DNA from: a virus
Lineage: Duplodnaviria > Heunggongvirae > Uroviricota > Caudoviricetes
Virus record (IMG/VR): IMGVR_UViG_2877285697_000008
Coordinates: 1 to 34,640 of that record
DNA: 34,640 bases
Strand: one strand, 5' to 3'
In this document: in pieces, positions 1,875 to 2,554 of the stretch
Layout of the letters: each line of letters begins with the position of its first letter
How positions within the stretch are numbered: position 1 is the first letter of the stretch
Notes under the pieces: model-generated
The model's database searches: none
The model's input: only the letters and a program-made list of their open reading frames with translations
Told to the model about the DNA's origin: nothing
Program-made: the position numbers and the translations under genes

Positions 1875-2092
1875 CCCGGATTCATCCGTTTCCCTGTTCA
1901 GCCTGACAGCACGCCCCGGCGGCCGGATGACAGACTCCGCTTCGGTAAGCAAAGCGGTCTTCTGTGATTCCGCCAGTTGCGGCTTATTCATTACTCAACG
2001 TCAAACGCCCGAATTGAATGTAAATCCTCCAGGTTATTCAGCTCCTCTTTCATCTCCCGCTGACGGCGATAAATCTCATCGTTGCGATCGAC

Positions 2093-2554
2093 CTACGCCT
2101 GCACCATTGCTGCCACCAGTTCTTCCAGTTCCGGCATCGACAGTTTCACCTGCTGATTATCGGCATCGCTCCACGCCATATGTGTTTGTGCTGTGACAGA
2201 TTTTGCCAGCATGACTACCGGGGACAGGCGGCCCAGTGAGTCGGGGCCAGCATTCCAGATACGACCGTTCCATTCAAACGTGAACGGCTTTGCCTCCTGT
2301 TCTGTGCGCCATGCTTCAATTTCCTGACGTCTGGCCTCTCTGGCCGCTTCCAGTATTTCTGGTGTCACAGTGAATGGGGCTATCTCACCCCATTTGCCGC
2401 TTTGCAGTTCCTGCCAGATTTGCTGCCCCGTCGGAGCGACATCATCAGCGGTGGCTGTGTAGGGGACTGCCTGGTCCCTGTCGTCAAAAAAAACGTCACA
2501 GTCTACTGCGCCACTTTCGGTATAACGGGGATTAATGATTTTTTTAATTTCCAC
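2093..2554 (-). CDS. Putative tail fiber assembly/chaperone-like protein downstream of stf
   Basis: ORF directly downstream of the Stf-like gene; likely GTG start at 2554 with GAGGAA RBS 10 nt after the stf stop (the track ORF 2093-2614 overlaps stf). Family assignment is from position and weak motif resemblance only. Confidence 0.45.
   Translation of the reverse strand: MEIKKIINPRYTESGAVDCDVFFDDRDQAVPYTATADDVAPTGQQIWQELQSGKWGEIAPFTVTPEILEAAREARRQEIEAWRTEQEAKPFTFEWNGRIWNAGPDSLGRLSPVVMLAKSVTAQTHMAWSDADNQQVKLSMPELEELVAAMVQA

Follow-up and report, generated by a model that had tools for sequence, protein, structure and literature searches.

A role as fibre chaperone has been demonstrated or proposed for DUF4376 proteins of several phages. 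In Alteromonas phage V22, gp27 is an intermolecular fibre chaperone whose gene lies directly after the fibre gene (PMC7289586). Phage A5 gp9 is likewise described as a DUF4376 fibre chaperone (PMC10579305), as is the product of the DUF4376 gene downstream of the H-fibre in the Campylobacter prophage CJIE1 (PMC7882524). The chaperone is needed or helpful for active fibres in each of these systems (PMC7289586, PMC10579305, PMC7882524), and the need for it in folding or trimerisation of the cognate fibre is known only from experiments on V22 gp27 and CJIE1 (PMC7289586, PMC7882524). In related chaperones trimerisation is mediated by a conserved C-terminal helical part (PMC9608196). Here we analyse a DUF4376 gene read on the minus strand of a 34,640-nt stretch of DNA (IMG/VR virus record IMGVR_UViG_2877285697_000008; hereafter the window), and the amber codon, TAG at 2095–2093, at which its reading frame now ends. 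Judged from sequence comparison, this TAG is very probably a lineage-private CAG to TAG nonsense mutation, caused by a G to A change at plus-strand position 2095, in a defective phiP27-like prophage that bears ipaHb. It is an ordinary pseudogene lesion of a well-known kind and represents no new mechanism.

The window gene resembles the V22 gp27, A5 gp9 and CJIE1 systems in its DUF4376 domain, in the fibre gene directly upstream and in a length of about 190–240 aa, and its product shares with theirs a helical body with beta-hairpins. The kinship is nevertheless distant, being known via the common Pfam domain rather than from direct alignment. The window copy also differs from all three in being cut at codon 154 and in having a disrupted client gene, and for both reasons it would now be incapable of chaperoning. 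Nearer counterparts are L57 of phage phiP27 (NP_543109) and 'tail4' of Rac-SA53, which share 78–80% DNA identity over the gene, the part after the amber included, and which likewise close the tail-fibre module, after a second fibre gene and beside the prophage end. Both, however, are intact, their annotation goes no further than 'tail fiber protein' or unknown, and neither has an ipaH downstream. Lambda Tfa, Mu U and T4 gp38 (PF02413) are comparable in their position after the fibre gene and in their presumed role, but the DUF4376 protein of the window lies outside that family.

The amber codon and the frame beyond it

The minus-strand open reading frame (ORF) at 2614–2093 terminates in ELVAAMVQA followed by the TAG. 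Past this codon the same frame runs through 33 sense codons (2092–1994) to a TAA at 1993–1991, with a TGA stop directly after it. A sequence-only reading of the stretch had already pointed to this arrangement, with coordinates and peptide that proved exact on re-reading, and had offered two explanations: a recent nonsense mutation shortening the protein, or chance. The length of the open frame alone is no evidence, because, over the six frames of the whole window, 22% of the intervals between stops reach 33 codons or more. A run of this size is therefore unremarkable and compatible with a protein that normally stops at residue 153, the 33 open codons being coincidental. The decision between the two explanations comes from homology.

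Full-length homologues were aligned, as that reading had proposed; they cover the region past the TAG, and not one ends at its position. Megablast against phage records matches phiP27 and Rac-SA53 at 78–80% identity from 2531 to 2022, straight across the TAG, and the coding sequences (CDSs) of both are intact at 567 and 564 nt. In ten complete Escherichia coli genomes there are copies that span 80% or more of the query, the best matches being 93–99% identical. In the inspected E. coli loci (L003, L004, L005 and L022) a 624-nt CDS annotated 'DUF4376 domain-containing protein' corresponds exactly to window 2614–1991. Three close E. coli loci have CAG (Gln) in the DNA alignment where the window has TAG at codon 154, and the 102 nt that follow the window TAG are 100% identical to the full-length gene L003 of E. 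coli FDAARGOS_944, down to the same TAA. A pattern scan in which either C or T was allowed found 15 further copies, seven in Shigella flexneri SFBU1023 and eight in 'E. coli' ECMA0423, both of them species-representative genomes, and all 15 copies carry CAG. The three close loci and the 15 paralogous copies together make 18 other copies, every one of which has CAG and runs on to the common TAA.

The same holds for a second locus of FDAARGOS_944, L022, which also has CAG and in which the fibre gene and ipaHb are both intact. L022 is collinear with window positions 1–3612 (99.3%) and 9017–15512 (99.8%) and, on this alignment, is the syntenic orthologue without the insertion sequence (IS) that splits the window fibre gene, and hence the best comparator. 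The window gene thus has a premature stop at a codon that is sense in its orthologue and paralogues, with homology extending on to a common stop, as in a pseudogene formed by nonsense mutation. On this point the nonsense explanation of the sequence-only reading is borne out.

Protein comparisons agree. Among the 120 closest database proteins, 118 extend to query positions 186–192; the remaining two are marked as partial and break off at contig ends. More diverse relatives were represented by 91 proteins from 50%-identity clusters, down to about 30% identity, chosen as those covering the upstream part of the protein; 85 of these end at projected positions 181–200 and none of the 91 ends at position 153. 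No relative has a stop at codon 154, whether among the close homologues, the diverse representatives, the 18 copies or L022. A natural end at residue 153 is further contradicted by the 102 nt downstream, which are identical to coding sequence of full-length genes and specify five nearly invariant residues, and by Pfam and PHROG profiles that align across the region. The homologue alignments therefore rule out chance as the source of the open frame, and we give a natural end here the least credence of any explanation considered.

Several observations concern the paralogous copies themselves. S. flexneri SFBU1023 and 'E. coli' ECMA0423 each hold the 3' end of the DUF4376 gene seven to eight times (L007–L021), and 13 of these 15 copies match the window sequence just beyond the stop. 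Other forms of decay of the DUF4376 gene are seen in L007, L008 and L012 and in protein SF2024 of S. flexneri 2a 301, which have a chimeric N-terminal part or a frameshift. Linkage to a downstream ipaH was observed in the annotated E. coli loci L003–L005 and L022. Codons 166–179 of the window gene (1994–2050), with the tail …NNLEDLHS…, are like those of the ipaHa-linked paralogue L003 of FDAARGOS_944, whereas the syntenic ipaHb-linked orthologue L022 has …SGLDDLAS… instead. The distribution of these tail variants suggests gene conversion or recombination among paralogous prophage ends.

The ancestral product and the part removed

The ancestral DUF4376 gene would have spanned 1991–2554 on the minus strand, with 187 codons and the TAA, in line with the orthologous 624-nt CDSs; it is now a pseudogene. 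Its probable start is a GTG at 2554–2552, which lies 10 nt past the TGA of the fibre gene and is preceded by an AGGA ribosome-binding site, and homologues of 187–188 aa begin at the equivalent of this codon. In PGAP-style calls the start is instead the ATG at 2614, further upstream, which gives 207 codons. For family profile searches the protein was taken as 187 residues with codon 154 restored to Gln. Its match to Pfam PF14301 (DUF4376) scores 61.6 bits, where the curated gathering cut-off is 25, with residues 70–174 corresponding to profile positions 1–96 of 106, and phrog_1141 aligns with it end to end over residues 1–187. NCBIfam has no model for it. As the amber falls inside the matched stretch 70–174, about the last quarter of the DUF4376 domain is lost and the domain is no longer complete.

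The label 'tfa-like', given to the gene in the sequence-only reading, holds for its position and probable role but not for its family, which is DUF4376 and not PF02413. The DUF4376 protein has no match to PF02413 (Caudo_TAP, the lambda/Mu Tfa family) at E ≤ 0.01. A genuine PF02413 Tfa is encoded elsewhere in the window, at 9269–9814 (ORF 9272–9814, 92.8 bits), and hhalign of the DUF4376 family profile against this protein returned a probability of 0.2%; membership in the lambda-type Tfa family was accordingly rejected. A separate observation is that phrog_11571 has a Tfa-like N-terminal part and a DUF4376-like C-terminal part: the PF02413 Tfa (9269–9814) matches it with its N-terminal part, the amber-bearing protein (1991–2554) with its C-terminal, DUF4376 part. 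These profile matches suggest that hybrid chaperones joining PF02413-type and DUF4376-type modules exist, and that modular exchange takes place between the two kinds.

By analogy with the described DUF4376 systems, the ancestral product was most likely an intermolecular tail-fibre chaperone. The gene order fits such a role: the probable GTG start at 2554 comes soon after the end of the fibre ORF (PF08400, phrog_2636) at 2565, so that the gene stands directly after the fibre gene, and the same succession of fibre gene and DUF4376 gene is found in L001–L005 and L022. In the proposed model the ancestral gene, placed directly behind its client, would have encoded a 187-residue DUF4376 protein that chaperoned that fibre, with an N-terminal beta domain and a second domain built of helix, beta-hairpins and helix. 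The CAG to TAG change at codon 154 would then have reduced it to a product of 153 residues, predicted to be non-functional.

The structural consequences of the stop were assessed with a highly confident AlphaFold2 model of a 79%-identical 187-residue homologue, computed from an 80-sequence alignment (predicted local distance difference test score 96.7). The model has beta strands within residues 3–34, helices at 41–51 and 65–88, a helix at 104–117 flanked by two beta-hairpins, a 35-residue helix at 140–174 and a short helix at 178–182. The truncated product keeps 153 of the 187 residues, and the conserved last 34 are cut off. The amber severs helix 140–174 after 14 residues, so that 21 of its 35 residues are lost together with the C-terminal tail; the 33 orphaned codons (residues 155–187, at 1994–2092 on the minus strand) would have encoded the rest of this terminal helix and the short C-terminal helix. 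The family alignment has 13 nearly invariant columns, and five of them (I161, R164, Q165, R166 and K169) lie past the stop. Because the terminal helix is cut and the C-terminal tail and these five residues are gone, the 153-residue product is predicted from model and alignment to be non-functional.

Downstream of the gene, a pattern scan found a terminator-like hairpin at 1854–1875 (minus strand), with a stem of nine pairs, seven of them G-C, and a T run, as a match to the consensus only. It lies 116 nt beyond the ancestral TAA, in the interval that separates the DUF4376 gene from the convergent ipaH.

Distribution and age of the TAG allele

The allele is narrowly distributed. Exact-protein look-up placed the 171-aa truncated product on a single 4.56-Mb chromosome, CP026827.1 (GCA_002949935.1), to which the window is 100% identical over 12.6 kb, and the same look-up found no record of the 173-aa or 153-aa forms. 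Metagenome contigs gave no match to the TAG allele. The 111 nt surrounding the stop match at 166 places, spread over 76 complete E. coli genomes; even at its best place, no listed record comes closer than two mismatches.

Against the 18 other copies, four bases are private to the window gene, and all four are G:C to A:T transitions. They lie at 2354 (codon 67, M to I), 2291 (codon 88, synonymous), 2115 (codon 147, A to V) and 2095 (codon 154, Q to stop), so that three of the four alter the protein. In the same comparison the orphaned 33 codons contain no private base, and the stop is therefore young relative to the divergence of the compared copies. The description of the mutation as recent is upheld by this and by the lack of a second disabling change in the orphaned codons.

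A classical origin of CAG to TAG ambers is deamination of 5-methylcytosine at the Dcm hot spot, in CCAGG (motif CCWGG). This origin was considered and rejected for the window stop: the ancestral context is GCGCAGGTC, where a G stands before the mutated C, so that the CCWGG motif is absent.

Restriction of the allele to one assembly raises the question of whether the genome truly has CAG and the TAG was miscalled in the sole assembly that carries it. Only one chromosome has the truncated product on record, and no other collection searched contains the allele; in addition, the lesion in the neighbouring ipaHb is a change in homopolymer length, a typical kind of long-read error. The change at 2095, however, is a substitution and not a homopolymer indel. 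It is accompanied in the gene by three more private G:C to A:T transitions, resembling real mutational divergence, and the locus contains IS insertions with target duplications, structural lesions that lie beyond sequencing or assembly error. We consider a miscall improbable, although it is the strongest of the competing explanations.

Decay of the surrounding prophage

The DUF4376 gene closes the tail-fibre module of the phiP27-like prophage, with ipaHb convergent to it at the prophage end. The module comprises baseplate genes, a fibre gene with its PF02413 Tfa, and a second fibre gene with the DUF4376 gene. This second fibre gene, the presumed client, is in two pieces on the minus strand. 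Up to 3612, its 3' part (2565–3612; PF08400, phrog_2636) is collinear with the fibre gene of L022, which is intact at 1269 nt. Its 5' part (9017–9245) is collinear with L022 from 9017 onwards at 99.8% and corresponds to a 112-aa PF08400 ORF in L006. The two are separated by a 5.4-kb IS66-family element (3613–9016), recognised from its junctions, from the empty site in L005 and L022 and from the Pfam assignments of L006 genes, with an 8-bp target duplication, CAGCAATG, at 3605–3612 and 9017–9024. Nested within it are an IS4-family element (transposase at 3991–5337, minus strand) and an IS3-family element (ORFs at 6682–7838, minus strand), the latter splitting tnpC.

Two further genes of the prophage are damaged. 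The convergent ipaHb (1–1811, plus strand) is frameshifted and now consists of ORFs 1–612 and 645–1811. One C has been lost from a run of five near 566–569, 1100 window bases aligning to 1101 of intact ipaHb, and the run is C4 in the window but C5 in L022. The frameshift parts the LRR_TTSS region (ORF 1–612) from the NEL ligase (ORF 645–1811); this homopolymer change could itself be an assembly error. An IS1 at 17025–17792, with a 9-bp duplication CATTCGGTG, cuts a tape-measure-like ORF, which is 571 codons as it stands and 650 codons once the IS1 is taken out. Together with the amber, the IS66-family insertion, the IS1 insertion and the ipaHb frameshift document this ipaH-carrying prophage as defective. 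IS insertions, frameshifts and nonsense mutations pile up in the window prophage as they do in prophage decay on ipaH-carrying chromosomes of the Shigella or enteroinvasive E. coli type, and nothing about it is unusual. Among the data searched, this amber allele is confined to one chromosome.

With its fibre gene split by the IS66-family element, a tail gene interrupted by IS1 and a frameshift in ipaHb, the prophage would already have been dead, and the nonsense mutation would have been effectively neutral in it. With the client fibre gene gone, the chaperone gene would be under no selection, and the three protein-altering changes among the four private ones fit this state. Several points weigh against this account. 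The allele is found in only one assembly, and either the IS insertion or the amber may have come first. The chaperone role is drawn from distant members in Alteromonas and Campylobacter phages and not from the window protein or phiP27 L57, and the loss of function is a prediction.

The split client gene also bears on a different possibility, that the stop is functional. The amber might be read through, by a host suppressor or in a programmed manner, so that low-level read-through would give some full-length chaperone; or the 153-residue fragment, with its intact N-terminal beta domain and partial helical domain, might be kept for a new role unrelated to the fibre. The orphaned codons are still intact, as read-through would have it, but none of the observations gives this explanation positive support. 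A suppressor tRNA was looked for among the four tRNAs found in the window, which are Met, Arg, Thr and Gly, and none is a suppressor. At programmed read-through sites the stop is conserved; here it is conserved in no relative. The client fibre gene is destroyed, leaving nothing for the product to act on, and the share of private changes that alter the protein suggests relaxed constraint. Both forms of a functional stop are very unlikely, more so than a miscalled base, and a nonsense mutation in a gene freed from selection is strongly preferred.

For annotation, the ORF at 2614–2093 would be best recorded as a pseudogene of the DUF4376 tail-fibre-chaperone type with an internal stop, and not as an intact 'tfa'. 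The G to A change at 2095 provides a small marker usable for tracing the lineage. Beyond annotation the importance of the lesion is small, and it opens no new question.

Other mobile elements lie further along the window. A second IS1 copy at 33103–33870 is inverted relative to the first and is flanked by CAAACACCA. An IS3-family element of 1250 bp is present in three copies that are 100% identical, at 23909–25157, 26011–27260 (inverted) and 29609–30858. The arrangement of these copies invites inversion or deletion by homologous recombination; they bracket the tRNA cluster (27492–27802) and a phage lysozyme gene (28698–29195).
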